From: Longimicrobiales bacterium
GTDB lineage: Bacteria > Gemmatimonadota > Gemmatimonadetes > Longimicrobiales > RSA9
Length of the DNA stretch: 64,000 nt
Reading direction: 5' to 3'
Assembly: GCA_046483065.1 (NCBI GenBank)
Contig: JAWODW010000037.1
Span: 1,779 to 65,778 of the forward strand
Under the pieces are notes generated by a model that worked only from the letters and a program-made list of their open reading frames with translations, made no database searches and was not told the DNA's origin. Positions 18,031 through 53,462 of the stretch are shown piece after piece. Within the stretch, counting starts at the first letter, position 1. Each line of letters starts with the position of its first letter. Position numbers and translations under genes: made by a program.

Positions 18031-21000
18031 TTGACGATCCTCGATCGGCTGCTCCCCGACTATCCGGAAGACCAGAAGGCCGAGCGGCACCAGCTCCTCG
18101 GTCTCATGGGGATGTTCTTCCTCGTGGTCACGGCGGTGGGGATCCTGAAGCCGGTGCGGAACTCGCTGGCGCTCTCCGGGCTCGGCGACGGCGAATTCTA
18201 CCGGGTGTACCTGGTGAGCGCCGTGGTACTCCTCTTCGTCCCGTTCTACAACCGGCTGGCGGACCGGGTGGGGTGGGGTGCGCTGGTTCCGGCCATGGCG
18301 GTGTTCTTCGGGCTGAACCTGGTAGTGTTCCGGTTCGCGTACACGGAGGGCAGCACGCTGCTGGGGCTGGTCTTCTACGGCTGGTACGACCTGTTCGCGG
18401 CGGCGCTGGTGACGCAATTCTTCGTGGCGACGCAGCTGCTGCTGAACGCCCGGAGCGCCAAGAGCGCGTACCCGCTGGTGATCGGCGGGGGCGCGCTGGG
18501 TGCCATGCTGGGCGGCGGGATCGCCGGGTTCCTGGCGGAGGCCATCGGCACGCCGAACCTGCTGCTGCTGGGGGCGGTGTGCATCCTGGGGTTCGGGCTG
18601 GGGATCCCCCTCGTGTGGCCCGGCGAGGAGATCACGGCCGTCCAGCGGCAGCGGTCCCGGGGCGTGCGACGGAAGGAGACGCTGTCGAAGGGCGAAGTCC
18701 GCCGGCTCCTGGGCAACTCCCACGTCCGGCTTATCGCGGTGAGCGTGCTGATCGTGGTCCTGGCAAAGCAGCTGGTGGACTACGAGTTCAACACGCTCAC
18801 CAAGCAGATTTTCGTGACGGAGGACGCGGTCACCGAGTTCCAGGGATACGTCAACCTGGCGACCCAGTGGCTACCCCTGGTCTCGGTGGTGGCGCTCCGG
18901 CCGCTCCTGAAGCGGTGGGGGCTCGGCGCCATCGTGTTCATCCTCCCGGGGCTGATCTTCCTGAGCAGCTTCGTGGCGGCGGCCTTCTTCTCCATCTGGA
19001 CGGTGATCGCCGTGCGGACTTCGGACACCATGTTCCGGTACTCGGCGGAGCGGGCGAGCCGGGAGATCCTCTACGTCCCGATCCCCGAGGAGATCAAGCT
19101 CAAGGCGAAGACGTACATCGATGTGGGCGTGGAGAAGGGGCTCGGAAAGGCACTGGCCGCCGGCGTCATCGCGCTCCTGGTGGAGGTGCTGCACCTCGGT
19201 CTCGAGCAGATCGCGTGGGTGGTGGTGGCGATGGCCGCGGCGTGGGTCGGGATCACGATCCTCGTCCGCCGGGAGTACGTCCGCACGCTCGCCCGCTCGA
19301 TCCGGGGCCGGTTCGCCAGCTTCCAGGGGCTGAGCGCACTCTCGGATGCCAGCACCCAGGAGGTGGTCCGCCGGTCGCTGCGCAGCGACGACCCGGTGCA
19401 GGTCTCCTTCGCCCTGGACCTGGTGGACCAGAGCGCGGGCACCGACACCCGCCCGGTGGCGGAAGCGCTCCACGAGCTGCTGGAGCACAGCAACCCGGAC
19501 ATCCGTCACAAGGCGCTGCGGATCCTGACGGAGGACCGGGACCCGGACTCCGTGGACCCGGAGCGGGTCCAGCCGCGGCTCCGGGACCGGGTCCGTCGGG
19601 TCCGCGAGCAGGCGGTGCTGGCGCTCCTTTCGGCGGCGCCGGATCGGCAGAAGGAGCTGGTGCGGGGGCTGCTGGCGTCTCCGCACTCGGAGGTCCGGAC
19701 GGCGGCGCTTGCCGTCCTGGCCCGGGGCGACGTGGCGGCCCGGGGCGACGAGCTCCTGGGCGCGTCCTTCCTGGACGAGCGCTGGGAGCAGGCGCAGGCC
19801 GGGCACCGGGACGCCCGGGTGGAGCTCGCCCTGGCCGCCGGGGTGCACCGGTCGCATCCCCGGGCCGTGGAGGTCCTGGAGGCGCTCCTCGGCGACCCGG
19901 ACCCGGTGGTGGCGTCGGCGGCGCTCCGGAGCGCCGGGCTGCTGGACCGGACCGAGCTCCGGACGGCCATGGTGGAGGGGTTGAAGAAGCCGGGGACCCG
20001 GCAGGCGGCCCGGGACGCTCTGGTGGAGCAGGGCCAGCGGGCGGTGGAGTGTCTGGCGGACGCGCTCCTGGACGAGTCGTCCCACCCCACCATCCGACGC
20101 CACATCCCGTCGGTCCTGGCCCGGATGCCCAACCGGGCGGCGGCGGACGCCATGCTCCACAGCGTGGTGGCGCCGGAGACCGACCAGCTGCTGGACTACC
20201 GGACGCTGAAGGCGCTGAGCCAGATCCGGACCCGGGACCCATCGCTGGAGTTCGACCGGGAGATGGTAATGGCTTCCATCCGGCGTGAGGTGGAGGCCGC
20301 CGTCCGCTACCACCGGGCGCGCCGGTGCATCCGGGAGCTCGAGCTCGACGGTCGCGCCACGTCGCTCCTCCGGAAGTCGCTGACGGAAGCGTGGTCGGAG
20401 CGGCGGGAAGGTGTGTTCCGGCTCCTGGGGCTGCTGTACCCGTCCGACGAGATGTACCGGGTGTACCTGGCCATCAGCAGCGGGGAGCGGACCCCGCGGG
20501 CCAACGCCATCGAGTGGCTGGAAGAGACGCTGGACCGGGGCCTCTTCCAGCGGATCGCACCGGTCCTGGGTGAGACGGCGCCGCTGGATGAGCTGGACCC
20601 GTTCGTCTCCCTGGGATCGCTGCTCCGGGACGGCGACCCGTGGATCGCCCGGACGGCCGTGGCGGCCACGGCGGAGATCGAGCAGCCCTGGAGTCGGGCG
20701 GTACTGCATGATATCATCGGGTCGGAGTCCCACGGCGACGCCGGCGAGCAGGCCGACCGCCGGCTCCGGCGGGCAACGGCGAGCGAGGAAGGCACCATGG
20801 ATCTCATCGAGAAAGTCTTTCTGCTACAGAAGATCGACCTGCTGCAGGACGCCCGGAGCGCGCACCTGGCGCTGCTGGCGTCCATCGCCGAGGAGGTGGA
20901 GGCGGACCCCGGCACCGTGCTGATCCGTCAGGACGAGCCCACCGAGGCGCTCTACATGGTCATCGACGGCAGGGTGGACCTGGAGGGCGTGGCCGGCCAG

Positions 21001-21207
21001 CAGCTCGAAGCGGGGGACAGCCAGGCGTTCGGGACCTGGGCCCTCATCGACGAGGCGCCGAGCCTCGTCACGGCCACCGTGGACGAGCCGTCGCGGCTGC
21101 TCCGCATCACGCGCAGCGACTTCTACGACCTGCTGGCGGACCACCCGGAGCTGGCCCTCGGCCTGCTCCAGGGACTTGCCCGACGCGTACGCACGCTCGT
21201 AGCCTGA
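18031..21207 (+). CDS. Fusion protein: TLC/ATP:ADP-antiporter-like polytopic transporter domain + HEAT-like repeats + CAP-type cNMP-binding-like domain
   Basis: TTG start. Residues 1-~430 form ~11-12 TM helices with MFFLVVTAVGILKPVRNSL-type N-terminal signature. Residues ~440-880 carry HEAT-like repeats (SNPDIRHKALRIL, HSEVRTAALAVLA, DPDPVVASAALRSAG). The C-terminus is LIRQDEPTEALYMVIDGRV...FGTWALID...LLRITRSDFYDLL. Confidence 0.7.
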   Translation: MTILDRLLPDYPEDQKAERHQLLGLMGMFFLVVTAVGILKPVRNSLALSGLGDGEFYRVYLVSAVVLLFVPFYNRLADRVGWGALVPAMAVFFGLNLVVFRFAYTEGSTLLGLVFYGWYDLFAAALVTQFFVATQLLLNARSAKSAYPLVIGGGALGAMLGGGIAGFLAEAIGTPNLLLLGAVCILGFGLGIPLVWPGEEITAVQRQRSRGVRRKETLSKGEVRRLLGNSHVRLIAVSVLIVVLAKQLVDYEFNTLTKQIFVTEDAVTEFQGYVNLATQWLPLVSVVALRPLLKRWGLGAIVFILPGLIFLSSFVAAAFFSIWTVIAVRTSDTMFRYSAERASREILYVPIPEEIKLKAKTYIDVGVEKGLGKALAAGVIALLVEVLHLGLEQIAWVVVAMAAAWVGITILVRREYVRTLARSIRGRFASFQGLSALSDASTQEVVRRSLRSDDPVQVSFALDLVDQSAGTDTRPVAEALHELLEHSNPDIRHKALRILTEDRDPDSVDPERVQPRLRDRVRRVREQAVLALLSAAPDRQKELVRGLLASPHSEVRTAALAVLARGDVAARGDELLGASFLDERWEQAQAGHRDARVELALAAGVHRSHPRAVEVLEALLGDPDPVVASAALRSAGLLDRTELRTAMVEGLKKPGTRQAARDALVEQGQRAVECLADALLDESSHPTIRRHIPSVLARMPNRAAADAMLHSVVAPETDQLLDYRTLKALSQIRTRDPSLEFDREMVMASIRREVEAAVRYHRARRCIRELELDGRATSLLRKSLTEAWSERREGVFRLLGLLYPSDEMYRVYLAISSGERTPRANAIEWLEETLDRGLFQRIAPVLGETAPLDELDPFVSLGSLLRDGDPWIARTAVAATAEIEQPWSRAVLHDIIGSESHGDAGEQADRRLRRATASEEGTMDLIEKVFLLQKIDLLQDARSAHLALLASIAEEVEADPGTVLIRQDEPTEALYMVIDGRVDLEGVAGQQLEAGDSQAFGTWALIDEAPSLVTATVDEPSRLLRITRSDFYDLLADHPELALGLLQGLARRVRTLVA

Positions 21208-21212
21208 GTCCC

Positions 21213-21692
21213 ATGGCCGATACCCCCGCACCCACGGTGATGATCGTCGATGACGAGGAGATGGTGGCGACGGCACTCCGGAGCTTCCTCGAGCTGGAGA
21301 CGTCGTACCGCATCCTGACATTCACATCACCCACACGCGCACTGGAGGAGGCCGAGTCGGAGCCGGTGAACGTGGTGATCGCCGATTTCATGATGCCCGA
21401 GATGGACGGGATCACCTTCCTGCGCCAGTTCCGGGAGATGAACCCCCGGGCCACGCGGATCCTGCTGACCGGCTACGCCGACAAGGAGAACGCGATCCGG
21501 GCCATCAACGAGGCGGGGCTGTACTACTACCTGGAGAAGCCGTGGAGCAACGAGCACCTGAAGCTCGTGATCCGGAACGGTGTGGAGCGGTCCAGCCTGT
21601 TCAACGAGCTCGACAGCCGGGTCCAGGCGCTGGAGGGCGCGCACGAGGAGCTGTTCGAGATCCGACGAAGGCTGGTCCAGGCGTTCCTGTGA
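21213..21692 (+). CDS. Stand-alone response regulator receiver protein
   Basis: VMIVDDEE...VVIADFMMPEMDG...LTGYAD...YYYLEKPW, with a short coiled-coil tail. 5 nt after the upstream stop. Confidence 0.9.
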   Translation: MADTPAPTVMIVDDEEMVATALRSFLELETSYRILTFTSPTRALEEAESEPVNVVIADFMMPEMDGITFLRQFREMNPRATRILLTGYADKENAIRAINEAGLYYYLEKPWSNEHLKLVIRNGVERSSLFNELDSRVQALEGAHEELFEIRRRLVQAFL

Positions 21693-23191
21693 GCATCAGC
21701 CCCCGGAGCTGGAGCCCGGAGGAAGCGGCGGGCGACGTGCGGCTCCACAGGCCCGTCCGGTCCCGGGCCGTCGTCGTCGGCTGGACGCTGGTGCTGGGCG
21801 CCATCTTCCGCCTGGGGCTGGGGCTGCCCCTCGACGTCCGCTTCTTCGCGCTGGCCGCGGGCTGGTTCGTGGCGGCGGCGGCAACGTTCCACTGGCTCGC
21901 CGGCCACCGCAACTCCACGGCGTTCTTCTCCGTCCGGTTCCTCCTCTTCGCCGCCGAGGTGGTGGTGGCCGCGTGGCTCGCCCATTACATCGGCGCCAGC
22001 AGCTGGCTCGCCACCCTCTTCCTCCTGCTCCCCGCCATCGAGTGGAACATGCTCTACCCCGGCGCGTGGGGGCTGGCCGGGTCGTTCTTGGCCGTCCTGG
22101 CCACGGGTGCCCTGATCGCGGGCGAGGCGCTGGGGTTCGTCCCGCCCGGCGCGCTGTTCAGCGCCATCGAGACCGGCTACTCCGACCCGTTGTACGCGGT
22201 GGGCGCGTTCCTGGTCTCGGCGTCACTCATCATCGGGCTCTCCACGGTGGTCAGCCGGTACGCGGAGGCGGGCCGGCGGAAGAGCCGGGAGCTGGAAGCG
22301 GCGAACGAGCGGCTCCGGGAGCTTTCCCGGGACGTGCAGGAGTCCCACGCCGAGCTGGAGTCGGCGTACGAGCAGCTCCAGGACACGCAGGCGGAGCTGG
22401 TGGGCTCGGCCAAGCTGGCCACACTGGGGAACCTCATCGCCGGTGTGGCCCACGAGATCAACACGCCGCTGGGCGCGCTCCACAGCAACCACTACACCAT
22501 CGCCCGGGCACTGGAGCGGCTCCAGGAGATCCTGGAAGACGAGGTGGTGGACGAGCACGAGCTGGAGGACGTGCGGCGGATCGTGAAGGCCATCGACGGC
22601 GTCACGGCCACGAACAACATGGCCGTGGACCGGATGGTGAAGCTGGTGAGCAGCCTGCGGACGTTCGGGCGGGTCGACCGCTCCGACATCGATTACGCGG
22701 ACCTCCACGGGGGCCTGGAGAGCACACTGGCGATCCTGAGCCACGAGCTGCGGCAGCGGATCGAGGTGGAGAAGGATTACGGCGACCTGCCCCGGGTGGA
22801 GTGCTACCCGAACCAGATCCACCAGGTGTTCATGAACCTTATCGTGAACGCCATGCAGGCCATGGAGGACGGCGGCACCCTGACACTGCGGACCCGGCAC
22901 GAGGGTGACGAGGTAGTGATAGAGGTACAGGACACGGGCGTGGGCATGTCCCGGGAGACCATCGACCGGATCTTCGACCCCGGCTTCACCACCAAGGGGT
23001 CGCGCATGGGGATGGGGATGGGGCTCCTGATCACGAACCGCATCGTCGACCGGCACGACGGCCGGATCGAGGTCGAGAGCGAGCCCGGCGTGGGCACCAC
23101 GTTCACCATCCGCCTCCCCGTCCGGCTGCCGGAGAAGGCCCGGACCGGTCGGGAGACCCGCCGGGAACCGACCCCCGACGGGGTCGCTTGA
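21689..23191 (+). CDS. Sensor histidine kinase with polytopic (about 6 TM) membrane-embedded sensor region
   Basis: GTG 21689 overlaps the RR stop (GTGA). H-box AGVAHEINTPLGAL. N/G boxes NLIVNAMQAM, DTGVGM, GMGMGLLI. Confidence 0.88.
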   Translation: MSISPRSWSPEEAAGDVRLHRPVRSRAVVVGWTLVLGAIFRLGLGLPLDVRFFALAAGWFVAAAATFHWLAGHRNSTAFFSVRFLLFAAEVVVAAWLAHYIGASSWLATLFLLLPAIEWNMLYPGAWGLAGSFLAVLATGALIAGEALGFVPPGALFSAIETGYSDPLYAVGAFLVSASLIIGLSTVVSRYAEAGRRKSRELEAANERLRELSRDVQESHAELESAYEQLQDTQAELVGSAKLATLGNLIAGVAHEINTPLGALHSNHYTIARALERLQEILEDEVVDEHELEDVRRIVKAIDGVTATNNMAVDRMVKLVSSLRTFGRVDRSDIDYADLHGGLESTLAILSHELRQRIEVEKDYGDLPRVECYPNQIHQVFMNLIVNAMQAMEDGGTLTLRTRHEGDEVVIEVQDTGVGMSRETIDRIFDPGFTTKGSRMGMGMGLLITNRIVDRHDGRIEVESEPGVGTTFTIRLPVRLPEKARTGRETRREPTPDGVA

Positions 23192-23222
23192 GCACCAGCG
23201 CGGCACGAAATCGAAGGGACCC

Positions 23223-24200
23223 ATGAGACCGAACAGCACGCGGCACCGCACCCCTCTGACAGTCGGGCTGGCGGCCCTCATCCTGGCCGTGGCGCCCACT
23301 GGCATCGCGGCACAGGGCAACATCCTCCACCCGCCGGACACCATCGAGAAGCGGCTGGCCCACGACGACTTCGAGATCGTGGACCGCAGGGGCTCCCGGT
23401 TCGATGGCGACCGGACGAACCGGGTGGCCATGTCGTTCGCCGACGGCACCATGATGGTGGCGAAGTGGGCGCTGGCGCCTCAGGGTGGCGAGGCGTACAA
23501 CAACAACCCGCGCTACGAGGTGGCGGCCTACGAGCTCCAGAAGCTCTTCCTGCGGCCCCACGAGTTCGTGGTGCCGCCCACCGTGTTGCGGGCCTTCGAC
23601 CTGGGCTGGTTCCGGAGCCTGGAGCCGGGCGTGCGCCCGACCTTCAATGACACCGAGTCGGTCCTGGTGGTGCTCCAGTACTGGCTCTTCGACATCGCCG
23701 GCGCCGAGTTCTGGGACCGCCGTCGGTTCGCCAGCGACTCCGTCTACGCCCGGCACCTGGCCAACTTCAACATCTTCACGTACCTGGTCCGGCACAACGA
23801 CCAGAACCAGGGAAACTACCTGATCTCCGGGATCGAGACCGACCCGCGGGTCTTCAGCGTGGACAACGGGATCGCGTTCCAGAGCAGCGTGAGCGACCAG
23901 GGCGCGAACTGGCGCCGGCTCCGGGTGGACCGGCTCCCGACCGAGACCATCGACCGGCTGCGGGAGCTGACCGAGGAGGATGTGCGCCGCCGGCTCGAGA
24001 CCGTGGCCCAGTTCCGGATCCAGCCCGATGGCACGCTCACGGCCGAGCCCACCGGCCCCGCCCGCGACCCCGGCCAGGGGATCCGTCGCTCCGACCGCGT
24101 GATCCAGCTCGGCCTGGACCGCCGGGAGATCGACGACGTGTGGCGCCGGATCCAGCGCCTGCTGGCACGCGTCGATGACGGCGACTTCGAGCTCTTCTGA
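23223..24200 (+). CDS. Signal-peptide protein with PI3/PI4-kinase (type II PI4K-like) catalytic motifs, paralogue 1
   Basis: Signal peptide ...LAALILAVAPTGIAAQG. Motifs VAKW (Lys), NNNPRYEVAAYELQKLF...VVPPTV, RHNDQNQGNYLI (catalytic loop-like) and FSVDNGIAF (DxG-like). About 45 percent identity by eye to 37512..38531. Confidence 0.65.
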   Translation: MRPNSTRHRTPLTVGLAALILAVAPTGIAAQGNILHPPDTIEKRLAHDDFEIVDRRGSRFDGDRTNRVAMSFADGTMMVAKWALAPQGGEAYNNNPRYEVAAYELQKLFLRPHEFVVPPTVLRAFDLGWFRSLEPGVRPTFNDTESVLVVLQYWLFDIAGAEFWDRRRFASDSVYARHLANFNIFTYLVRHNDQNQGNYLISGIETDPRVFSVDNGIAFQSSVSDQGANWRRLRVDRLPTETIDRLRELTEEDVRRRLETVAQFRIQPDGTLTAEPTGPARDPGQGIRRSDRVIQLGLDRREIDDVWRRIQRLLARVDDGDFELF

Positions 24201-24203
24201 GCC

Positions 24204-24644
24204 ATGGACGTGATCTTCGCAGTCGTCGCCGACGCAGCCAACGTGAGCCGGGAAGGCAAGCTCAACATCATGGGCATCTTCGACCGGGTCTTCGCCCGGA
24301 AGGTACCCGCCCGGTTCCCGCCGATGCAGCTCGTGATCCGGCTGGAAGCCGACTACGCCGAGCTCGAGACCGAGCACGCCATCCGGGTACAGCTCAGCGA
24401 CCCGGACGACGAGTCCGTCTTCGATATCGACGGCAGCTTCACCCCCCGGGGCGGCCAGCCCGGCCAGAAGGTCCCGGTCAACCACGTCCTCCAGCTCGGG
24501 AACCTGCCGCTCCAGCGTACGGGCACCCACCGGATCCTCATCTGGATCGATGGCGACCTGAAGCGGGAGCTGCCGATCCACGTGGTCCAGGCCCCCGACG
24601 CCCCGCCCCCGGGCGCCGACGGCGGCGATACACTGGTCCACTAG
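24204..24644 (+). CDS. Hypothetical small soluble protein
   Basis: ATG 3 nt after the upstream stop. High GC3. MDVIFAVVADAANVSREGKLNIMGIFDRV N-terminus. No family assigned with confidence. Confidence 0.7.
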   Translation: MDVIFAVVADAANVSREGKLNIMGIFDRVFARKVPARFPPMQLVIRLEADYAELETEHAIRVQLSDPDDESVFDIDGSFTPRGGQPGQKVPVNHVLQLGNLPLQRTGTHRILIWIDGDLKRELPIHVVQAPDAPPPGADGGDTLVH

Positions 24645-25275: not shown

Positions 25276-28491
<3,216 letters not shown>

Positions 28492-28595
28492 GGTCACGCG
28501 TCCCTTGTGCGGGGGTCGAAGTCTGCCTATGTGCGGGAAGGGCCGGACGCCCAAAGTGGGAAGGGATCCGGGATGATGCCAGGGGATTGGTGATC

Positions 28596-35638: not shown

Positions 35639-37453
35639 TCAGTGCCCGACTGCCGCCGCGTCCGCATCGCGGGGGTCCGGCGCGCCGGCGATCCGGCCAT
35701 CGGGCCGCACACGAATCGAATGGGCGTGCCCCTGGGCGCCGCGGATGTCGATGGAGTGGCCGCGATCCCGGAGCCCCAGCAGGACGGCCTCGGGCCAGTC
35801 GGCGTCCTCCATCCGCAGCCGGTCCGGGAGCCACTGGTGGTGGACCCGGGGCGCCTGGACGGCTGCGAGGATCCCCATGTCGAACTCCATCAGGTTGAGG
35901 CTCACCTGGAGCACGGTGTTGATGATGGTCCGCCCGCCGGGGCTGCCCACCACGGCGAAGAGGCCGCCGTCGGGGTCCTCGAGGATGGTGGGTGACATGC
36001 TTGAGAGCATCCGCTTCCCGGGCTCGGCCAGGTTCGGCTCGGTCCCGATGAGCCCACCCTCGGTGGTGAGGCCCGGCGCGGGGTTGAAGTCGCCCATCTC
36101 GTTGTTCAGGAGGAACCCGGCGCCGGGGACGGTGATCCGGGAGCCGTAGCTGTATTCCAGCGTGTACGTGGTGGAAACGGCCATGCCGTCGGGGTCCACC
36201 ACGGAGAAGTGGGTGGTCTGCGCGCTCTCGTGGACCATGGCCACGTCGTCCACCGACGACGGCGTCACGGTGTCGGACTCGATCCCGGCCCGGAGCTCGG
36301 CCGCGTACGCCTTGCTCGTGAGCCGGTCCAGCGGGACGTCCACGAAGTCGGTGTCGGCCAGGTGGCGCGCGCGGTCGCGGTACGCCCGGCGCATGGCCTC
36401 GGCCAGGTGGTGGACGTACGGCGCGGTGTTGTGGCCCATGGCCGCCAGGTCGTACCCCTCGAGGATGTTGAGCATCTCCACGAGGGCGGTCCCGCCGCTG
36501 GACGGCGGCGGCATCCCGATGACGCCGTAGCCCCGGTACGTGCCCCGGACGGGCGCCCGCTCGGCGGGCTCGTAGCGGGCCAGGTCCTCGAGGGTGATGA
36601 GCCCGTCGCCGCGCTCCATTTCGGCGACGAGGAGCCGGGCCGTCTCACCGGCGTAGAACCCGTCGCGGCCCTCGTCCCGGATCCGCTCCAGCGTCCGTGC
36701 CAGATCGGGCTGCCGGAAGATCTCGCCCACCTCGTACGGCTCGCCGTCCTTCGAGAACGCGGCCACGCTGGCGGGGTAGCGCTCGAACGCGTCGAGCACC
36801 GACGCCAGCGACCGGGCGGCGCCGGGCGTCATCTCCCAGCCGTCGGCGGCGAGCCGGACGGCGGGCTCCACCAGCTCCCGCCACGGCAGGCTGCCGTACT
36901 GGTCGTGGACGTACGCCAGGCCGGCCACCGTGCCGGGCACACCCACCGCCCGATGGCTCAGGTGGTGACGCTGCCGGTCGTACTCGCCGTCCTCGTCGAG
37001 CCACATCTCCGGGTGCGCGGCCAGCGGCGCCTTCTCCCGGAAGTCGATGGTCGTAGCCTCGGCGTCGGGCAACCGGACCACCATGAACCCGCCGCCGCCG
37101 ATGTTGCCGGCCCGGGGGTAGACCACCGCCAGTGCGAAGCCGGTGGCCACAGCGGCGTCCACGGCGTTGCCGCCGGCCTGGAGCACCTCATCGCCCACGT
37201 GGCTGGCCAGCGCGTGGGCGGAGACCACCATCCCGTGCTCGGCCACAGCGGCACGGTCGGCGGGCACGGCAGCGACGCCGGGCTCATCGCCCACGGCCGC
37301 CGGGACGGGGTCGGTCCGTTGCACCGGTGTCTCGGCGGGTGCGCCGGCACACGCCGGGAGGGCCACGAGCCCGAACGCCAGGAACAGGGTGGCCAGCCCA
37401 CGCACGGCGGGCCGGGAGAAGTCGGGAACGATAGCGTTGAGCGTCATAGTCAC
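35639..37453 (-). CDS. ggt: Gamma-glutamyltransferase
   Basis: Lipoprotein-like signal (LVALPACAG). GGNAVDAAVA, PPSSGG, autoprocessing/catalytic TTHFSVVD, NNEMGDF. Confidence 0.93.
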   Translation of the reverse strand: MTMTLNAIVPDFSRPAVRGLATLFLAFGLVALPACAGAPAETPVQRTDPVPAAVGDEPGVAAVPADRAAVAEHGMVVSAHALASHVGDEVLQAGGNAVDAAVATGFALAVVYPRAGNIGGGGFMVVRLPDAEATTIDFREKAPLAAHPEMWLDEDGEYDRQRHHLSHRAVGVPGTVAGLAYVHDQYGSLPWRELVEPAVRLAADGWEMTPGAARSLASVLDAFERYPASVAAFSKDGEPYEVGEIFRQPDLARTLERIRDEGRDGFYAGETARLLVAEMERGDGLITLEDLARYEPAERAPVRGTYRGYGVIGMPPPSSGGTALVEMLNILEGYDLAAMGHNTAPYVHHLAEAMRRAYRDRARHLADTDFVDVPLDRLTSKAYAAELRAGIESDTVTPSSVDDVAMVHESAQTTHFSVVDPDGMAVSTTYTLEYSYGSRITVPGAGFLLNNEMGDFNPAPGLTTEGGLIGTEPNLAEPGKRMLSSMSPTILEDPDGGLFAVVGSPGGRTIINTVLQVSLNLMEFDMGILAAVQAPRVHHQWLPDRLRMEDADWPEAVLLGLRDRGHSIDIRGAQGHAHSIRVRPDGRIAGAPDPRDADAAAVGH

Positions 37454-37511: not shown

Positions 37512-38531
37512 CTAGAACGTCTCCAGCTCGCCGGCGTCTACACGGTCCAGCACGGTGCGGATCCGGGCCCACAGCTCATCCAGCTCCAGGTTCGTGAGCC
37601 CGAACTGGATCATGCCTTCCTCCCGGGGCACGCCCCGGTTCTCGTCGATCTTGGCCGTGGGCGGGACCCGTTCCAGGCGGCCATCCTCGCGCACCCGGAA
37701 CTGGGCCACCACGTAGAGCGCGTCGTCCAGCTCGCCCCGGGTCAGCCGCCGCAGCCGCTCGACGGCCTCGCCGGGGACGCGGTCCACATGCAGGTCCCGC
37801 CACACCGTACCCCGCGGACTCGCCGGACTGCGGAACGCCACCCCGTTGTCGACGGCATAGAGCCTGGGCGGTCCCCGGGTGGAGACCAGCACGTTGCCCG
37901 GGTTGGAGTCCACGTGCCGGATCAGGTGCGTGAAGAGGTTCAGGTAGCCGAGGCGCCGGGCGTACGCCGGGTCCCCACCGAGGCGTGCGGTGTCCGGCGC
38001 CTCGGCGGCGTCCACGTTCTGGAGCCAGTACTGCACGGCCACCAGCACCGAGCCCGTTCCCTCGAACGTGGGCTCCGCCTCCGGGTCGAGTTGACGGTAC
38101 GCGGTTAGTGGTAGCTCCCGGATCACGGTGGGCGGGACCACCCAGTCGGCCTCGTCGAAGAAGAGCTTCTGGAAGGCGTACGCCGCCGCCTCGTAGCGGG
38201 GCTGGTTGTTGATGGCGAACCCGCCCGGCGGCGCCTTGGCCCACTTCACCCGGATGCGCCGCCCATCGCTGAACTGGATGTCCGTCTGCTGGGTCCGATC
38301 GCCCTGCCACCGGTTGTCGCGGATCCCGACGATCTGGAACGGGTCGCCGGCCAGGCGGGCCTCGACGGCCGTGGGGGAGAAGACGTAGTTGGGGCCGTAC
38401 GTGGACGCCTGCGGATCGCTCGTCGGGAGAGCGCTGTCCGGGCGGCTCCCGCCCTGGGCCACAGCGGGAGCCGCCACAACGGCGGCCGCCACCGCCAGGA
38501 CCGAGAGGCGTGTTCGGGAGAATGTTCGCAT
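37512..38531 (-). CDS. Signal-peptide protein with PI3/PI4-kinase (type II PI4K-like) motifs, paralogue 2
   Basis: Signal peptide MRTFSRTRLSVLAVAAAVVAAPAVAQG. Motifs VKWAKAP, NNQPRYEAAAYAFQKLF...VVPPTV, RHVDSNPGNVLV, YAVDNGVAF. C-terminal FGLTNLELDELWARIRTVLDRVDAGELETF matches paralogue 1. Confidence 0.65.
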   Translation of the reverse strand: MRTFSRTRLSVLAVAAAVVAAPAVAQGGSRPDSALPTSDPQASTYGPNYVFSPTAVEARLAGDPFQIVGIRDNRWQGDRTQQTDIQFSDGRRIRVKWAKAPPGGFAINNQPRYEAAAYAFQKLFFDEADWVVPPTVIRELPLTAYRQLDPEAEPTFEGTGSVLVAVQYWLQNVDAAEAPDTARLGGDPAYARRLGYLNLFTHLIRHVDSNPGNVLVSTRGPPRLYAVDNGVAFRSPASPRGTVWRDLHVDRVPGEAVERLRRLTRGELDDALYVVAQFRVREDGRLERVPPTAKIDENRGVPREEGMIQFGLTNLELDELWARIRTVLDRVDAGELETF

Positions 38532-38649
38532 GGGGGCAACATACCGGCGGCCCGGGGGCCGCGGCCAGTATCTTGCCCCGGGCCGCCGTCACAGGCCAGA
38601 TTATGGACACTTCCCTCGCAACACGTCACTCATCAGGCAGACCGTCGCC

Positions 38650-40449
38650 ATGACCGCCCCTAATGTGGACCCGCGTTCCATGGAGGTCGAGGGCCTGGCG
38701 CTCGATCCCGGCGAGCAGAGAGCGGTCCGGGCCCGGCAGCTGCGCACGCTGAACACCCGCACGGTCCCCCTCCTGCGGCTCCTGGGCGCCAACTTCCTGG
38801 TGTTCGGCGCCGTGGTGCACAACAGCCTCATCCTGGGCCGGATCGACTGGACGGCGATCCTCGTCTACACCGCCTTCGTCGAGCTCTACTGTCTGGCCAG
38901 CTGGTGGGCCCTCGACCGATGGTACGACCCCGATGCGTCGCCGGACCTGGCACTCCTCTTCCTGGTGGCGGACCTCGTCCCCATGGCCATGGCCGTCTAC
39001 CTCACCGGCGCCGACGCCAGCTGGATCTTCTGGGTCTTCCTCGTCCGGGTGGTGGACCAGACCCACACGTACTTCATGCGGGCGTTCATGTTCACCTGGC
39101 TCGCCACGCTGGCCTATGCATCGGTGATCGGGTGGGCGGTGGTGGTGGACGGGGCCACGGTCAACCTCCCCGGCGAGATCGCCAAGCTCATGTTCCTGGT
39201 CCTGGCGGGGTCGTACATCTCGTTCACCGCCCGCACATCCGAGCGGGTCCGATCGCGCCTGGCCGACGCCATCCGCACGGCTCGACAGTCGGTGACCGAG
39301 CTGCGGGTGAAGTCGCGACAGCTGGAGCAGGCCCGGGAGGCCGCCGAGGCCGGGAGCCAGGCAAAGAGCCAGTTCCTGTCCCGGGTCAGCCATGAGCTGA
39401 GGACCCCGATGAACGCCATCCTCGGCTTCGCCCAGCTCCTCCAGTTGGACGAGATGACCGAGGAGCAGCAGGCCCACGTCGACGAGATCCTGACGGGCGG
39501 CCGCCACCTGCTCGACATCATCAACGAGGTCATGGACATCGCCCGGGTCGAAACAGGGTCCCTGGCCAAGGAGGTGGAGCCGATCCGGCTGGGGCCCGTG
39601 CTCCGGGAGGGGCTGGAGCGGGCGCAGCCCACCGCCGAGCGCCGGAACGTGACGCTCCCGGAGCGGCCGCCGCCGGGCTCGGACGCCTGGGTCATGGGCA
39701 GCCGGCGGAAGGTGCGGCAGGTCTTCGCCAACCTCCTCGACAACGCCATCAAGTACAACAGCTCGCCGGGCACCGTGTCGCTGGCCTGCGGGCACCGGGA
39801 CGGGACCCTACGGGTGAGCGTGACCGACACGGGCCCGGGGCTCCCAGCCGGCCGGATCGAAGCGGCGTTCACCCCCTTCGAGCGCCTCGGCGCGGAGAAG
39901 ACCGACCCCGACGGCACGGGGCTCGGCCTCCCGGTGGCACGATCCCTGGTGGAAGCCATGAACGGACGGATCGGCGTGGACTCGGAGCCGGGCTCCGGGA
40001 GCACCTTCTGGTTCGAGCTCCTGGAGGCCGAGCCCCCATTGCAGGAGGAGGCCAGAGTGGTGGACGCGGAGACCACCGGACCCCTGGTGCTCTACGTAGA
40101 CGACAAACCGGAAAACGTCGTGCTCGTCCGCCGGATCCTGGCCCGGCGCCCCACGGTCCGCCTGATCTCGTCACCGCTGGGGCTGAAAGGGCTGGAAACG
40201 GCACGGCAGCGCCGACCCGACCTGATCCTCCTCGACCTGGAACTCCCCGACATCGCCGGGCGAGAGGTGCTGACCCGGCTGCAGGACGACGTCGCCACCC
40301 GCGAGATCCCCGTGGTGGTGGTGAGCGCCGAGGCGGAACCGAGCAAGGTGGAGCGGCTCCTGGCCGAGGGCGCACGGGCCTACTTCGTCATGCCCTACGA
40401 CGTGGCGAAGTTCCTCGACGTGGTCGACGACCTGCTCGACCTGCGGTAG
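38650..40449 (+). CDS. Hybrid sensor histidine kinase (polytopic membrane sensor + HisKA/HATPase + C-terminal receiver)
   Basis: Start MTAPNVDPRS at ATG 38650. About 6 TM helices. H-box FLSRVSHELRTPMNAI, DTGPGL, GLGLPVA. Receiver VLYVDDKPENV...LILLDLELPDIAG. Confidence 0.88.
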   Translation: MTAPNVDPRSMEVEGLALDPGEQRAVRARQLRTLNTRTVPLLRLLGANFLVFGAVVHNSLILGRIDWTAILVYTAFVELYCLASWWALDRWYDPDASPDLALLFLVADLVPMAMAVYLTGADASWIFWVFLVRVVDQTHTYFMRAFMFTWLATLAYASVIGWAVVVDGATVNLPGEIAKLMFLVLAGSYISFTARTSERVRSRLADAIRTARQSVTELRVKSRQLEQAREAAEAGSQAKSQFLSRVSHELRTPMNAILGFAQLLQLDEMTEEQQAHVDEILTGGRHLLDIINEVMDIARVETGSLAKEVEPIRLGPVLREGLERAQPTAERRNVTLPERPPPGSDAWVMGSRRKVRQVFANLLDNAIKYNSSPGTVSLACGHRDGTLRVSVTDTGPGLPAGRIEAAFTPFERLGAEKTDPDGTGLGLPVARSLVEAMNGRIGVDSEPGSGSTFWFELLEAEPPLQEEARVVDAETTGPLVLYVDDKPENVVLVRRILARRPTVRLISSPLGLKGLETARQRRPDLILLDLELPDIAGREVLTRLQDDVATREIPVVVVSAEAEPSKVERLLAEGARAYFVMPYDVAKFLDVVDDLLDLR

Positions 40450-40504: not shown

Positions 40505-41278
40505 CTACGCGTCCCGGTCCAGGACGTACACGTTCCGCTGCGCCGACGGTAGCAGCACCATCCGCAGGATGTTGACATGGGCCGGCAGGTTCGCCACGTA
40601 CGCCACGGCGTCGGCCACATCGTCGCCGGTGAGCGGCTGGAACCCGTCGTAGACGCTCTCCGCCCGCTCCTCATCACCGTGGAACCGCACCACGCTGAAC
40701 TCCGTCTCCACGAACCCCGGGTCCACGCTCGAGACCCGGAGCCCCGTCCCCGTGACGTCCAGGTTGATGGCCTCCGTCAGCGCCGTTACCGCGAACTTGC
40801 TGGCGTTGTAGACGTTGCCCTTCGGATAGACCTGGTGGCCGGCCGTGCTGCCGATGTTGATGATATGGCCCCGGTCCGCCTCGATCATCGACGGGAGCAG
40901 GAGCCGCGTCACGTTCAGCAACCCCTTCACGTTCGTGTCGATCATCCGGTCCCAGTCGTCGAAGCTGCCCTCCTGGACCGTGTCGAACCCGGCGGCCAGC
41001 CCGGCATTGTTGACCAGGATGTGGGGCGGCCCCGCCTCGTCCAGGAGCCGGTCCACCGCCGCCCGCACGGCGTCCCGGTCCCGTACATCGACGCTCGCCA
41101 CGTGGACGGCCACGCCGTGCTCCCGGGCCAGCTCGTCCGCCAGCCGCTTCAGCCGCTCTTCCCGACGGGCCCAGAGCGCCACGTCGGCGCCCTCGGCCGC
41201 GAGCCTGCGCGCGCAGGCCTCTCCGATCCCCGAGCTCGCACCCGTCACCAGGGCGAGCTTGCCTTCGATTCTGTTCAT
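40505..41278 (-). CDS. SDR family NAD(P)-dependent oxidoreductase
   Basis: Start MNRIEGKLALVTGASSGIGEA (TGxxxGxG). NNAG. Catalytic Y..NASK (YNASKFA). Confidence 0.9.
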   Translation of the reverse strand: MNRIEGKLALVTGASSGIGEACARRLAAEGADVALWARREERLKRLADELAREHGVAVHVASVDVRDRDAVRAAVDRLLDEAGPPHILVNNAGLAAGFDTVQEGSFDDWDRMIDTNVKGLLNVTRLLLPSMIEADRGHIINIGSTAGHQVYPKGNVYNASKFAVTALTEAINLDVTGTGLRVSSVDPGFVETEFSVVRFHGDEERAESVYDGFQPLTGDDVADAVAYVANLPAHVNILRMVLLPSAQRNVYVLDRDA

Positions 41279-41293
41279 ACCGTCAAGCTTTCG

Positions 41294-41594: not shown

Positions 41595-41636
41595 GGACCC
41601 ACCGCGTCGCCCGGACCCACCGCGTCGCCCGGACCC
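41595..41636. repeat. 18-bp tandem duplication (GGACCCACCGCGTCGCCC x2.3) abutting the DinB stop codon
   Basis: Copies at 41595..41612 and 41613..41630, with a partial third at 41631..41636. Confidence 0.9.
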
Positions 41637-42163
41637 TACCGATACCGCTCGTCGAGGATCGCCCGGTGGTGGATCTCGTGGCCGGCGATGACCCAGGCGA
41701 TGCCCCGGGGCGTGAACGTCACGCCGCTGGCGGTGCCCGTCCGGAGCAGTGCTGCATCGGTGAGGCCGCGGAAGAGAGCCGCGGTGGATGCCCGGACCGC
41801 CGCGAGCTCGGCCTTCACGCCGTCGAGGGTGCGGGGCGCCAGGTCATCGGGAACCACGTAGTCGTCCTGCGCGAAGCCCGGCAGCGGCGTGGCATCGCCC
41901 CGGGCGATCCGGAGCGCACGATAGCCGAACACCCGCTCGGTATCGGCCAAATGGACCAGGACCTCCTTCAGACTCCATTTCCCGGCGGCGTACCGGTAGT
42001 CGGGGTCCACGCCGAGAGCGTCGACCACGCGGAAGGTCTCCTCCAGCTGTCCGGCCAACGCCGAGAGCAGGCTCCCCGCCGGTCGGTGCTCCAGGTAGCC
42101 GCGGTAGTACTCGGCTACCTCGTCCGGGCCGGGACGGCCGTCCAGCACGCCGATGCCGCTCAC
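41636..42163 (-). CDS. DinB-family (DinB_2-like) four-helix-bundle metalloprotein
   Basis: GTG 42163 forms a GTGA overlap with the upstream stop. EVLVHLADTERVFGYR and IAGHEIHHRAIL His motifs. Confidence 0.75.
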   Translation of the reverse strand: MSGIGVLDGRPGPDEVAEYYRGYLEHRPAGSLLSALAGQLEETFRVVDALGVDPDYRYAAGKWSLKEVLVHLADTERVFGYRALRIARGDATPLPGFAQDDYVVPDDLAPRTLDGVKAELAAVRASTAALFRGLTDAALLRTGTASGVTFTPRGIAWVIAGHEIHHRAILDERYR

Positions 42164-43062
42164 TCGGGGACCCCGCAGTCGCTCCGGGGCAGCGCTCGGC
42201 CGGGTGCCTCGATCCGGGCTTCCACCCGGGCCACCACCGCCGGACGCATGTCCAGGAACCGATGGACCAGGACCGTGTCGATCCCGGCAAGCACCGCCTC
42301 GAAGGAGTCGGCCGGGAGGCTGCGGTACCGCCGCCACGGCCGCCCCAGATCGCCGGGCTCGGCGATGGAGTCGATCTCCGCCTCCCAGCACGTGGTCGGC
42401 CGCGTGGTGGGCTGATACTCGAAGGCCCGGTTGTGGTCGATGGCTACCACCCGGTCACCCACAAGCAGCCAGTTGTTCGGGTGCCGGTCGCTGTTCCCGA
42501 TGATCGCGTCGAACAGACGCAGCGCGTCAGGCTTGCCGGCACCCTCGTCCGGCGGCGAGCGGGCGTCGGCCACGAAGTACATGGTCGAACCCGACAGGGT
42601 GTCCCCCTGCTGGTTCCTGATCCGGGTCCTGATGGTCATGGGCGTGAGATCCATGGCCAGGACCCGGTCGATCCGGTAGGTGGCCACTTCCCGGTCGGCG
42701 CCGCACTCGGGGCAGAAGATGTCGGAACCGTCCACCTTGAAGATGGACCGCACACCCGCCCCGTGATCGAGACGCCAGGTGTACGAGACGCCCTGGCTGT
42801 CCATGGCCAGCGGCGTGGCGGCCTCGGGCCACCCCCGGAGCCGTCCCTCGAGCCGGACCAGGACCTCCTCCGCACCCGCCGTGTCCCCGGCCGCCCGGAG
42901 CGTCCACGCGGCCTCCTGCAGACGCCCGCGCTCCAGCAGACTGTCCACCACGGCCTCGGCCCCGGCACCCTGAGCCGCCGCCGGCAGAGGCGCCCACGCC
43001 CCCGCCACCCACGCGGCCAGCCCCAGGACGATCACCCGCATTCCTCGCCTCGTTCCCTTCAT
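42160..43062 (-). CDS. Signal-peptide protein with PI3/PI4-kinase-like catalytic motifs, paralogue 3 (divergent)
   Basis: Start MKGTRRGMRVIVLGLAAWVAGAWA... Motifs FKVDG (Lys), REVATYRIDRVLAMDLTPMT, IIGNSDRHPNNWLL (DRHxxN), VAIDHNRAF. Confidence 0.65.
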   Translation of the reverse strand: MKGTRRGMRVIVLGLAAWVAGAWAPLPAAAQGAGAEAVVDSLLERGRLQEAAWTLRAAGDTAGAEEVLVRLEGRLRGWPEAATPLAMDSQGVSYTWRLDHGAGVRSIFKVDGSDIFCPECGADREVATYRIDRVLAMDLTPMTIRTRIRNQQGDTLSGSTMYFVADARSPPDEGAGKPDALRLFDAIIGNSDRHPNNWLLVGDRVVAIDHNRAFEYQPTTRPTTCWEAEIDSIAEPGDLGRPWRRYRSLPADSFEAVLAGIDTVLVHRFLDMRPAVVARVEARIEAPGRALPRSDCGVPE

Positions 43063-43436
43063 CCCACCTCGCCCTCCGCTCGAAGATCGGCAGCACGCAG
43101 CCACGAAGGACAAGCTCTATCCGCTGCGCCCGATCCGCCAGGGTGACCCACCGATTCGTACCGCGCCCTCTCCCTGGTCGACGGCAGGCTGAGGAGACGG
43201 AGAAGTACGAAGCGGCTCTACAGGTACAGGCCGACGGAGACGGCGACGAAGAGGAAAAGGGCAGCCTCCCGGGTGAGACTCTCCGCGGCGCTGCGTTCCG
43301 AAAGCTGCGAAACCGCTGGCATGTGTCGGGCAAACGCATCAACAACTTCGGAGATGAACCCAGGAAATTTTCGGGCGGGGATCGGGGTATGCCGTAAGTG
43401 TAACCCCAGCAAGGACTTACGATTTTCCGCCGAAAA

Positions 43437-51800: not shown

Positions 51801-53462
51801 TCAGACCGTGCGCAGGTACTCGTGCACCGCCCCTACCGTCGCCGATCCCTCGCCTACGGCGGCGGCGACGCGCTTGCCGGAGCCGTGGCGGGCGTCGCCG
51901 GCGGCGAAGATGCCGGGGACGCTGGTCTCGTAGAGGAGCGGGTCGCGGTCGGCGGTCCAGCCTGCGGGGCGACCGCCGTCACGCATGACGTCGCGGCCGG
52001 TGAGGATGAAGCCCTTGGGGTCGAGGGCCACGAGGTCGGCCACCATGGCGGTGCGGGGGGCGCTGCCGATGAAGACGAACACGGCGGCGGCGGGGCGGGT
52101 GGCGGCCTCGCCGGTGGCGGTGTCCCGGAGCTGGAGGGCCTCGAGGCGCTCGTCGCCCTCTACGCCCTCCACCACGGTGTTGGGCAGGACGATGATGTTG
52201 GCCGTCTCGCTGATCCGGTCGACCAGGTACTGTGACATGGACTTCCTCAGGTCGGGGCCCCGGATGAGGATGGTCACGGTACGGGCGAGGCGGGAGAAAT
52301 GGACGGCGCCCTGCCCCGCCGAGTTGGCACCGCCCACCACGAAAACGTCGCGGTTTCGGTAGAGGGCGGCCTCGCTGAGGGCGGAGCCGTAGTAGACGCC
52401 GGCGCCGACCTTCTCCTCGAGGTTGGGCACGTCCAGGCGCCGGACCTCCATCCCGCTGGCGATGACCACGGCGTAGCAGCTGAGCTCGGAGCCGTCGGCC
52501 AGCTCCACCACGCGGTACGGGTCGCCGCGGCGGACGCGGACGGCCTCCTGGGCGGTGAGCATCTCGACGCCGAAGCGCCGGGCCTGTGCGGCGGCGCGGC
52601 GGGCGAGCTCGGCACCGGTGACGCCGTCGGGGAAGCCGAGGTAGTTCTCGATGAAGGAGCTGGTGCCGGCCTGGCCGCCGGGCGCGGCGCGCTCGACCAG
52701 GAGCGTGGTCAGCCCCTCCGAGGCGCCGTACACGGCCGCGGCCAGCCCGGCGGGCCCGCCGCCCACGATGACCAGGTCGTAGAAGCGCTGCTTCGGGCGG
52801 GTGTCGAGGTTCGACTGCTCGGCCAGCTCCCGGGCGTCGGGCTGGATCAGCGTGGTCCCGTCGGGATAGAAGACCACAGGCAGGCGGGCCAGCTCCGGAT
52901 CGACGGCCTCGACGGCGGCGCGCATGGGGGCGTCGGTGTCGATGTCGCACCACTGGTACGGGATCTGGTTGGCGGACAGGAACCGCTTCGCGGCGTAGCT
53001 GGTCGGTGAGAACGCGGTGCCGCAGACGCGGATCCCTTCGAAGAGCGGACCGGCGGCGGCGCTCCACTCCTCGAGGAGCGCGTCCAGGTGCGGGTAGAGC
53101 CGCTCCTCGGGCGGCTCCCACGGCTTGTCGAGGTAGCGGTCCAGCCGGATCTGGTTGATCCCGGCCACGGCGCTGCTCGTGTCCGCGTACGCGGTCAGCA
53201 GCACGCGCCGGGCGTCGGGGTACATCTCCAGCGCGCGCACGAGGAACTCGGTCCCGCGCATCTCCGGCATGCGCTCATCGACGACGAAGAGGGCCACGGG
53301 CACACCGGTCTTCTTCAGCTCCCGGGTGACCTCCAGCGCCTGCGCGCCGGAGTCGGCCTTCACCACCCGGTAGTCCTTCCCGTAGCGGGACCGGAGGTCA
53401 CGGCCGACGGCGCTCAGGACCTCGGCGTCGTCATCCACGGCCAGGAGGACGGGGCGGGTCAC
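51801..53462 (-). CDS. Fused response regulator receiver / thioredoxin-disulfide-reductase-like FAD oxidoreductase
   Basis: Receiver LLAVDDDAE...LFVVDERMPEMRG...LTAYAD...YLDKPW. FAD site VIVGGGPAGLAAAVY, NAD site VVGGANSAGQGA, GIFAAGD. No CxxC redox motif was noticed. Confidence 0.85.
   Translation of the reverse strand: MTRPVLLAVDDDAEVLSAVGRDLRSRYGKDYRVVKADSGAQALEVTRELKKTGVPVALFVVDERMPEMRGTEFLVRALEMYPDARRVLLTAYADTSSAVAGINQIRLDRYLDKPWEPPEERLYPHLDALLEEWSAAAGPLFEGIRVCGTAFSPTSYAAKRFLSANQIPYQWCDIDTDAPMRAAVEAVDPELARLPVVFYPDGTTLIQPDARELAEQSNLDTRPKQRFYDLVIVGGGPAGLAAAVYGASEGLTTLLVERAAPGGQAGTSSFIENYLGFPDGVTGAELARRAAAQARRFGVEMLTAQEAVRVRRGDPYRVVELADGSELSCYAVVIASGMEVRRLDVPNLEEKVGAGVYYGSALSEAALYRNRDVFVVGGANSAGQGAVHFSRLARTVTILIRGPDLRKSMSQYLVDRISETANIIVLPNTVVEGVEGDERLEALQLRDTATGEAATRPAAAVFVFIGSAPRTAMVADLVALDPKGFILTGRDVMRDGGRPAGWTADRDPLLYETSVPGIFAAGDARHGSGKRVAAAVGEGSATVGAVHEYLRTV

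Follow-up and report, generated by a model that had tools for sequence, protein, structure and literature searches.

Two genes for exported kinase-like proteins lie beside histidine kinase (HK) genes in the DNA analysed here, a stretch of 64,000 nucleotides (hereafter the window; G+C content 70%) from contig JAWODW010000037.1 of a Longimicrobiales bacterium (Gemmatimonadota). Do these adjacencies reflect a functional link? In the feature at positions 37512-40449, the kinase-like gene par2 is transcribed divergently from HK2, which encodes a hybrid HK, across 118 bp; elsewhere in the window, the related gene par1 starts 31 nt downstream of HK1 (21689..23191). The original prediction, made from the sequence and exact in these coordinates, took them for two independent instances of one pairing, in which polytopic sensor kinases would read the membrane itself. 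The window carries 3 HK genes among its approximately 55-60 genes, and by a rough estimate both family members would have an HK neighbour by chance in ~1% of cases. This figure is suggestive but not decisive, and HK adjacency was therefore tested across genomes. The answer that we consider fairly probable is a different one: a two-component system regulates a module made of a transporter and an exported kinase, and par2/HK2 is not a further example of this arrangement.

The genome set comprised 79 loci, with one genome per species. Profiles of the HK, of the REC domain and of the kinase-like family were built from the window genes and iterated on six-frame open reading frames (ORFs). In a neighbour-joining tree, the 87 family genes fall into three groups. 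For the par1-type group (Gemmatimonadota), 30 out of 49 evaluable loci show a REC gene followed by an HK gene directly upstream and on the same strand, the gap between the HK domain and the par1-type gene being at most 110 nt. In the same loci, the background of non-adjacent HK genes is about 1.3 per 100 genes. Moreover, loci with as little as ~45% protein identity still show this order, so that the HK linkage is real for paralogue 1. The lack of HK enrichment in other genomes that would have refuted the original prediction was not seen for this group. The par2-type group (also Gemmatimonadota; 8 evaluable loci) is made up of 3 genes that follow a par1-type gene in tandem, 2 that face a divergent hybrid HK gene and 3 with neither, and no HK neighbour was found in the 17 evaluable loci of the non-Gemmatimonadota clade. 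The recurrent link between kinase-like and HK genes that had been proposed thus stands for paralogue 1 in Gemmatimonadota; it does not extend to the family members outside this phylum, nor to par2/HK2, an adjacency found only in the window and two orthologous loci, with a remnant in another.

The linkage of paralogue 1 belongs to an operon, of which the window contains the following copy:

18031..21207, + strand: NTT(TLC)-HEAT-cNMP_binding membrane protein of 1058 aa (Pfam), first gene of the operon
21213..21692, + strand: REC-only (CheY-like) response regulator (RR) of 159 aa (Pfam, Response_reg alone)
21689..23191, + strand: HK1, an HK of the long type with an N-terminal polytopic domain of ~6 predicted transmembrane (TM) segments (Pfam, HisKA + HATPase_c)
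23223..24200, + strand: par1, member of the PI4K-II-like kinase family with a signal peptide, last conserved gene of the operon
24204..24644, + strand: DUF6941 gene (Pfam, DUF6941 at 1.3e-29), a subclade-specific extension of the operon

The genes are tightly packed. The RR gene begins 6 nt past the stop codon of the transporter gene, the GTG start of HK1 overlaps the RR stop by 4 nt (GTGA), and the DUF6941 gene, found at the same place in three other loci (L018, L038 and L061), lies 3 nt past par1. The order transporter, REC-only RR, HK and par1-type gene (18031-24200 in the window) is conserved in Gemmatimonadota. The co-directional pair formed by a REC protein and a HisKA + HATPase_c kinase recurs in 30 loci, and the same RR gene, coding for 157-159 aa, was also found in L080, L083 and other operon loci. 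According to Pfam and NCBIfam, this RR consists of REC alone, with no DNA-binding or enzymatic output domain. The regulatory pair is an ordinary HK with a CheY-like RR.

The most constant partner is the transporter gene. In Pfam, the 1058-aa protein matches TLC (32.9 bits for a cut-off of 21), HEAT_2 (61.5 bits) and cNMP_binding (48.1 bits). It has exactly the three-domain architecture of the fusions between a nucleotide transporter (NTT) domain, HEAT repeats and a cNMP-binding domain (cNBD) described as a monophyletic group with no known function that is widespread among free-living bacteria (Major, Embley & Williams 2017, PMC5381601). A linkage to an RR, an HK or an exported kinase-like protein is not reported in that study, whereas here it is the rule. 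A full NTT-HEAT-cNBD gene lies upstream of the RR, HK and family genes in 28 of the 29 evaluable HK-linked loci of the genome set, the exception (L031) having only a stand-alone cNBD ORF. In addition, the transporter gene directly abuts the family gene, with no RR-HK pair in between, in L039, L047 and L079; in L076, it is a cNBD ORF alone that abuts it.

A reciprocal scan, in which the transporter was searched for in metagenome contigs, gave 80 loci, 52 of them evaluable. A family gene follows the transporter in 42 of these 52. The complete order with RR, HK and family gene was found in 22 loci, whereas in 20 others the transporter is shorter, part of the HEAT region being absent, and the family gene comes immediately after it. 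Seven loci have the RR-HK pair without a family gene, and the last three have neither. All evaluable long transporters are followed by RR-HK; the two-component pair therefore travels with the transporter, and so does the kinase-like gene. At least 24 loci combine transporter and family gene without RR-HK, and 7 combine transporter and RR-HK without a family gene. The primary association of the HK is thus with the NTT-HEAT-cNBD gene, not with the kinase-like one.

Independent evidence for the link between transporter and kinase comes from two sources. One uninterrupted ORF of 804 aa (P0146; L087:5718-8132) combines a TLC/NTT domain, a hydrophobic segment corresponding to the signal sequence of the family, and a family domain of the non-Gemmatimonadota clade; it contains neither HEAT repeats nor a cNBD. 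In a Bacteroidota locus (L057), the family gene is followed by an NTT-HEAT gene and then by a phosphoesterase gene.

Two other arrangements were observed around these transporters. The 7 loci without a family gene (L089, L095, L099, L102, L121, L152 and L165) carry a variant operon in which an additional HK gene precedes the NTT-HEAT-cNBD, RR and HK genes, and a gene for a 273-aa RibD_C-like protein without signal peptide (e.g. L099:11392-12213) replaces the kinase-like gene. Among the loci with a short transporter, two convergent RR genes, one coding for a REC-only protein of 133 aa and the other for a REC+GerE/LuxR protein, lie just past the family gene in L136, L140, L146, L149, L153-155, L157, L160 (10571-11939, - strand), L161, L163, L166 and L167.

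Hydropathy gives an approximate picture of 4-6 hydrophobic segments with short loops, at residues ~28-190 of HK1 and ~38-195 of HK2, which roughly fits the ~6 TM helices initially assigned to both kinases, here within their first ~200-230 residues. They are not sensors of the same type, though: a profile of the HK1-type membrane domain retrieved all 11 long orthologues at E<1e-100 and did not find HK2, nor did BLAST. A sensor domain shared by HK1 and HK2 was rejected on these grounds; their membrane domains are not detectably homologous, and the two pairings are not independent instances of a single one. Furthermore, only 11 of the 29 operon HKs in the genome set are proteins of ~500 aa with the conserved multi-TM domain. 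About 16 are short DHp+CA proteins of 255-340 aa with no predicted TM segment, such as the 281-aa HK of L083, which contains HisKA and HATPase_c only. In the metagenome set, about 16 of 22 HKs are short, as judged by the spacing between REC and family genes, and only 3 of 22 loci have room for a long HK. Most operon HKs being too short for a domain of 6 TM segments, membrane reading is not a trait conserved across these pairings, contrary to what had been proposed.

These results bear directly on a feedback through the bilayer, in which the secreted kinase-like enzyme would modify a membrane lipid, the polytopic HKs would sense the change and each paralogue would need its own sensor. The fold of the family is nearest that of a lipid kinase (PI4KIIalpha, see below), the operon HK of the window's subclade conserves a membrane domain with, by hydropathy, ~6 TM segments and short loops, HK2 appears polytopic too, and the operon with RR, HK and family gene is conserved. 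We nevertheless regard such a feedback as unlikely. Most operon HKs are predicted to be soluble, the RR-HK pair accompanies the transporter in loci without the family gene, as the family gene does in loci without RR-HK, HK1 and HK2 have unrelated membrane domains, and most loci orthologous to that of par2 have no HK2. We infer that the two-component pair is the regulatory module of the transporter/kinase system and not a detector of the kinase product.

The family itself is small, with ~350 homologues in a word-indexed search and, in an exhaustive profile search, 707 cluster representatives with E<=1e-3, a number that falls to 256 at E<=1e-30. It is centred on Gemmatimonadota, and members were also found in metagenome-assembled genomes of KSB1, Calditrichota, Bacteroidota and Marinimicrobia. 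Forty family sequences spanning 45-100% identity were aligned. All 40 begin with a signal sequence (positively charged, then hydrophobic, with an AxA|Q-type Sec cleavage site), and all 40 share K96, E114, the motif H206-x-D208-x-N210-x-G-N213 and D228-N-G230 (par2 numbering). The catalytic loop and the DxG motif align with those of ATM and Vps34. The AlphaFold2 (AF2) model of par2 (pLDDT 90.1, pTM 0.86) gave 30 Foldseek matches in the PDB at E<=1e-3, the first being PI4KIIalpha, followed by Vps34, ATM and ATR (4hnd, E 1.5e-6; 4pla, 4yc4 and 9hhm, TM about 0.39). Since sequence searches of the PDB with par2 and with the family profile gave nothing better than E>0.5, the fold assignment comes from AF2 and Foldseek. 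The PF00454 gathering threshold of 27.1 bits is reached neither by par1 (20.0 bits) nor by par3, a third kinase-like gene of the window (22.7 bits), and par2 has no match; some family homologues have precomputed PF00454 matches. The family thus probably consists of exported, active enzymes of the PI3/PI4-kinase fold, periplasmic export being predicted from the signal sequence alone.

The best structural match is to the type II phosphatidylinositol 4-kinases (PI4K; human PI4KIIalpha/beta), with an equivalent catalytic Lys, an equivalent loop Asp/Asn and an 'xDNGxAF' metal-binding motif, which we take to resemble the IDNGLAFP motif of PI4KII. Unlike type II PI4K, the family members are bacterial, about 320 aa long, predicted to be exported by Sec, devoid of a palmitoylation insert and below the PF00454 threshold, and their substrate need not be a phosphoinositide. 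A weak match over the catalytic core is to the SCO1664 family (TIGR03843) of actinobacterial PI3/4-kinase-like hypothetical proteins, itself uncharacterised. It is the only NCBIfam family that par2 and par3 touch, and they are not members of it (20-25 bits for a cut-off of 172).

One cluster representative (P0202, 644 aa) has a Beta-lactamase2 domain fused N-terminally to the kinase-like domain, which hints at a substrate tied to the cell envelope or to antibiotics.

A second recurrent partner of the family is an ApaH/PPP-like metallophosphoesterase of ~430 aa with a signal peptide, encoded after the family gene on the same strand. It is seen at L083:4384-5694 and L082:3608-4918, among others; the genome set has it in ~36 loci, including 13 from outside Gemmatimonadota, and the metagenome set in 16, with KSB1, Calditrichia and Bacteroidota represented. 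In two cluster representatives (P0121 and P0125), the family and phosphoesterase domains are fused. The window's subclade has no such gene, and DUF6941 is found instead.

The family could also be non-enzymatic, a periplasmic receptor with a kinase fold, for instance for extracellular nucleotides, that signals to a membrane HK or to the transporter. Periplasmic accessory proteins of HKs are known (LuxP/LuxQ, TorT/TorS and CpxP/CpxA), LuxQ and TorS reportedly receiving their information from periplasmic binding proteins, and so are membrane-embedded HKs without periplasmic domains. The window resembles these systems in that an exported protein is encoded beside a sensor kinase with no apparent periplasmic domain of its own, the N-termini of HK1 and HK2 being, by hydropathy, multi-TM with short loops. 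In addition, a periplasmic kinase is awkward because the periplasm is generally assumed to be free of ATP. However, the Lys, the catalytic Asp/Asn and the Asp of DxG are invariant across the 40 diverse members, which would not be expected of a pseudokinase. The accessory protein here would thus keep its kinase active site intact. The orthologous HKs are for the most part cytoplasmic by prediction, and a soluble cytoplasmic kinase cannot touch a periplasmic partner. A further difference from these systems is the RR, which has no DNA-binding output. The recurrent exported phosphoesterase, together with the fusions to it, argues for phosphate chemistry. We therefore consider a purely sensory role very unlikely.

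Under the regulatory reading that we favour, the HK would phosphorylate the CheY-like RR in response to an input from the membrane (long type, in the window's subclade) or from the cytoplasm (short type, in most others). Because it has no output domain, the RR must act on a protein, and it would do so by binding. The likeliest target would lie in the transporter, in its cytoplasmic HEAT/cNMP-binding part, where the co-varying HEAT segment is the obvious candidate. The transporter would in turn serve the periplasmic kinase; as a parsimonious guess, its cargo across the inner membrane would be a nucleotide such as ATP. In its most specific form, in which the NTT-like domain would act as an antiporter, sending out ATP (or another NTP) for ADP, and would thereby fuel the exported PI4K-like kinase, this proposal is tentative, and we hold it as possible though rather doubtful. 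The operon would then encode an energised system for phosphorylation in the periplasm. The kinase would be paired in most lineages with the exported ApaH/PPP-like phosphoesterase, and the flux would be gated from the cytoplasmic side by the binding of cyclic nucleotides and by the phosphorylated RR on the HEAT repeats. The same concept is known from eukaryotes, where Fam20C and four-jointed kinases of the endoplasmic reticulum and Golgi are supplied by the lumenal ATP/ADP exchanger SLC35B1/AXER: a kinase in a compartment without ATP synthesis relies on a dedicated nucleotide antiporter. The bacterial system differs in showing no homology to these proteins, in being deduced from gene linkage only, and in having a two-component system and a cNMP-binding domain in addition.

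The feature at 37512-40449 belongs to another part of the window, which contains:

35639..37453, - strand: ggt, a gamma-glutamyltranspeptidase (GGT; Pfam, G_glu_transpept at 1.8e-167)
37512..38531, - strand: par2, duplicated copy of the PI4K-II-like kinase family, with a signal peptide (AF2, Foldseek and alignment)
38532..38649, no strand: divergent intergenic region of 118 nt between par2 and HK2 (direct sequence reading)
38650..40449, + strand: HK2, a hybrid HK with ~6 predicted TM segments, HisKA, HATPase_c and REC (Pfam)
40505..41281, - strand: short-chain dehydrogenase (SDR; Pfam, adh_short; conserved synteny)
41636..42163, - strand: DinB_2 family protein (Pfam, DinB_2), translationally coupled to par3
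42160..43113, - strand: par3, secreted PI3/PI4-kinase-like protein with DRHxxN and IDHN motifs (PF00454, sub-threshold)

The ATG start of HK2 is backed by an orthologue with 73% identity, and the SDR start at 41281 is deduced from the lengths of orthologues, the ORF itself reaching 41347. As first noted, par2 is followed on the same strand by ggt, which starts 58 nt after it, and the par3 and DinB genes overlap by GTGA. The claim of three paralogues holds in part. Par1 and par2 share 47% identity (BLAST, E 1e-89), whereas par3 has a BLAST match to neither. A profile of seven par3 orthologues gave a marginal hhalign match to the family (probability 22%, E 1e-3), spanning the catalytic loop and DxG; with only this and the weak PF00454 score, par3 was rejected as a third close paralogue. 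By sequence, it is a distinct, remote PI3/PI4-kinase-like relative, and no par3-like gene was found next to the transporter in the 80 metagenome loci.

Annotated contigs and our own scans show a conserved block with the order par3, DinB, SDR, a variable slot, par2 and GGT, near which Rhomboid, PMT_2 and DLH genes are found. GGT lies directly downstream of the par2-type gene in every evaluable case (L001/L081, L002, L003, L006, L007/L080, L084, L085 and L086), and DinB after par3 is kept in L001, L006, L007, L084 and L085. In L004, L005, L016 and L090, the par2-type gene still follows a par1-type gene in tandem. Par2 is a duplicate, which belongs to a second conserved block in the window's lineage.

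The slot, for its part, is occupied in several ways. The par2/HK2 pair was found in 3 of 9 evaluable orthologous loci, a fourth having a REC-only remnant and the other five lacking it. The divergent hybrid HK occupies the slot in the window, in L081 (73% identity) and in L084 (77%). In L003 (59%), the slot contains a stand-alone REC protein of 130 aa (L003:967-1359, - strand), 57% identical to the REC of HK2, which resembles what a deletion in the hybrid kinase would leave. A Lumazine_bd_2 protein and a 123-aa lipoprotein are encoded there in L085 (71%), a homologous 132-aa lipoprotein in L080/L007 (52%), and nothing in L006 and L002. HK2 is thus one of several alternative occupants of the slot, and its adjacency to par2 is patchy and clearly dispensable. 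The idea of HK2 as a very recent insertion was softened, since L003 keeps a homologous REC remnant.

The slot lipoproteins (L080:14617-15015 and L085:7152-7523; 123-132 aa) are 51% identical to each other and have a lipobox, LSAC/LTGC.

Could HK2, par2 and GGT nevertheless form a genuine unit, in which HK2 would sense a cue, from the periplasm or the membrane, related to the products of par2 and GGT, or would control the divergent par2-ggt promoter through a putative phosphorelay, with the patchy distribution explained by secondary losses? Three genomes with 73-77% protein identity retain the arrangement, their divergent gaps measuring ~120-160 nt, and HK2 orthologues of 73% identity occupy the same slot in L081 and L084; the REC protein in the more distant L003 suggests an older association. 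However, the unit is missing from L085, which is as close as 71% identity, and from L002, L006 and L007/L080. In the gene list of the window and its Pfam annotation, no Hpt protein, output or DNA-binding regulator adjoins HK2. Since it is found only among close relatives, the conservation of par2/HK2 is indistinguishable from inherited local synteny, which is how we read it. A dedicated HK2-par2-GGT unit is accordingly judged improbable. Taken alone, the feature at 37512-40449 is ordinary.

Several points weigh against the reading of a regulated transporter/kinase module separate from par2/HK2. The binomial P of ~1e-44 obtained for 30 of 49 loci ignores phylogenetic non-independence. HK genes are absent beside 19 of the 49 par1-type genes and beside all non-Gemmatimonadota members, most of which also have no adjacent transporter gene; many family genes being without HK and/or transporter, neither partner is obligatory. 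As for the transporter, it matches the TLC model of Pfam over the C-terminal half only, and the NCBIfam family of NTP/NDP exchangers (TIGR00769) scores 23.9 bits, far below its cut-off of 387. That it transports nucleotides is therefore assumed, and its substrate may be another one. The transporter-kinase fusion was seen once only, on a single 8.9-kb Logan contig with 57% G+C. Finally, given the REC remnant of L003, the HK2/par2 neighbourhood may predate its patchy spread, and a functional link there is possible.

The conserved combination of transporter, two-component system and exported kinase appears to be new, no description of it having been found in the literature. Searches on periplasmic or secreted PI3/PI4-like kinases and on NTT-HEAT function returned nothing on this system, and an oral-microbiome PKL preprint concerns a different, intracellular PIK-like family. 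No later functional study of NTT-HEAT proteins was found, and the NTT-HEAT-cNBD fusions have had no function assigned since their description in 2017.

The usual view of the periplasm is that it contains no ATP; to our knowledge, bacteria export few enzymes with a kinase fold, and these are poorly understood. The tight, reciprocal linkage between transporter and exported kinase, with the fusion and the two-component system, merges the puzzle of such enzymes and that of the NTT-HEAT-cNBD fusions into one testable hypothesis. If ATP export proved true, it would give the NTT-HEAT-cNBD fusions of free-living bacteria a function and would reveal that ATP-dependent phosphorylation takes place, under regulation, in the periplasm of bacteria. 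For the feature at 37512-40449, the lesson is that one of the two adjacencies is a conserved operon while the one initially flagged is patchy, and that the HK would be a regulator attached to the transporter rather than a conserved sensor of the product.

Two other observations concern the rest of the window. A 1092-aa Sortilin/BNR-repeat protein (25276-28554, - strand) is kept just past DUF6941 in 8 related loci. The third HK of the window belongs to a gene pair on the - strand (51801-53462 and 53459-54913) and has an N-terminal cNMP-binding domain; its gene overlaps by 4 nt a gene encoding a fusion of REC with glutaredoxin-like and thioredoxin-reductase-like (Pyr_redox_2) domains, an unusual output for a response regulator.

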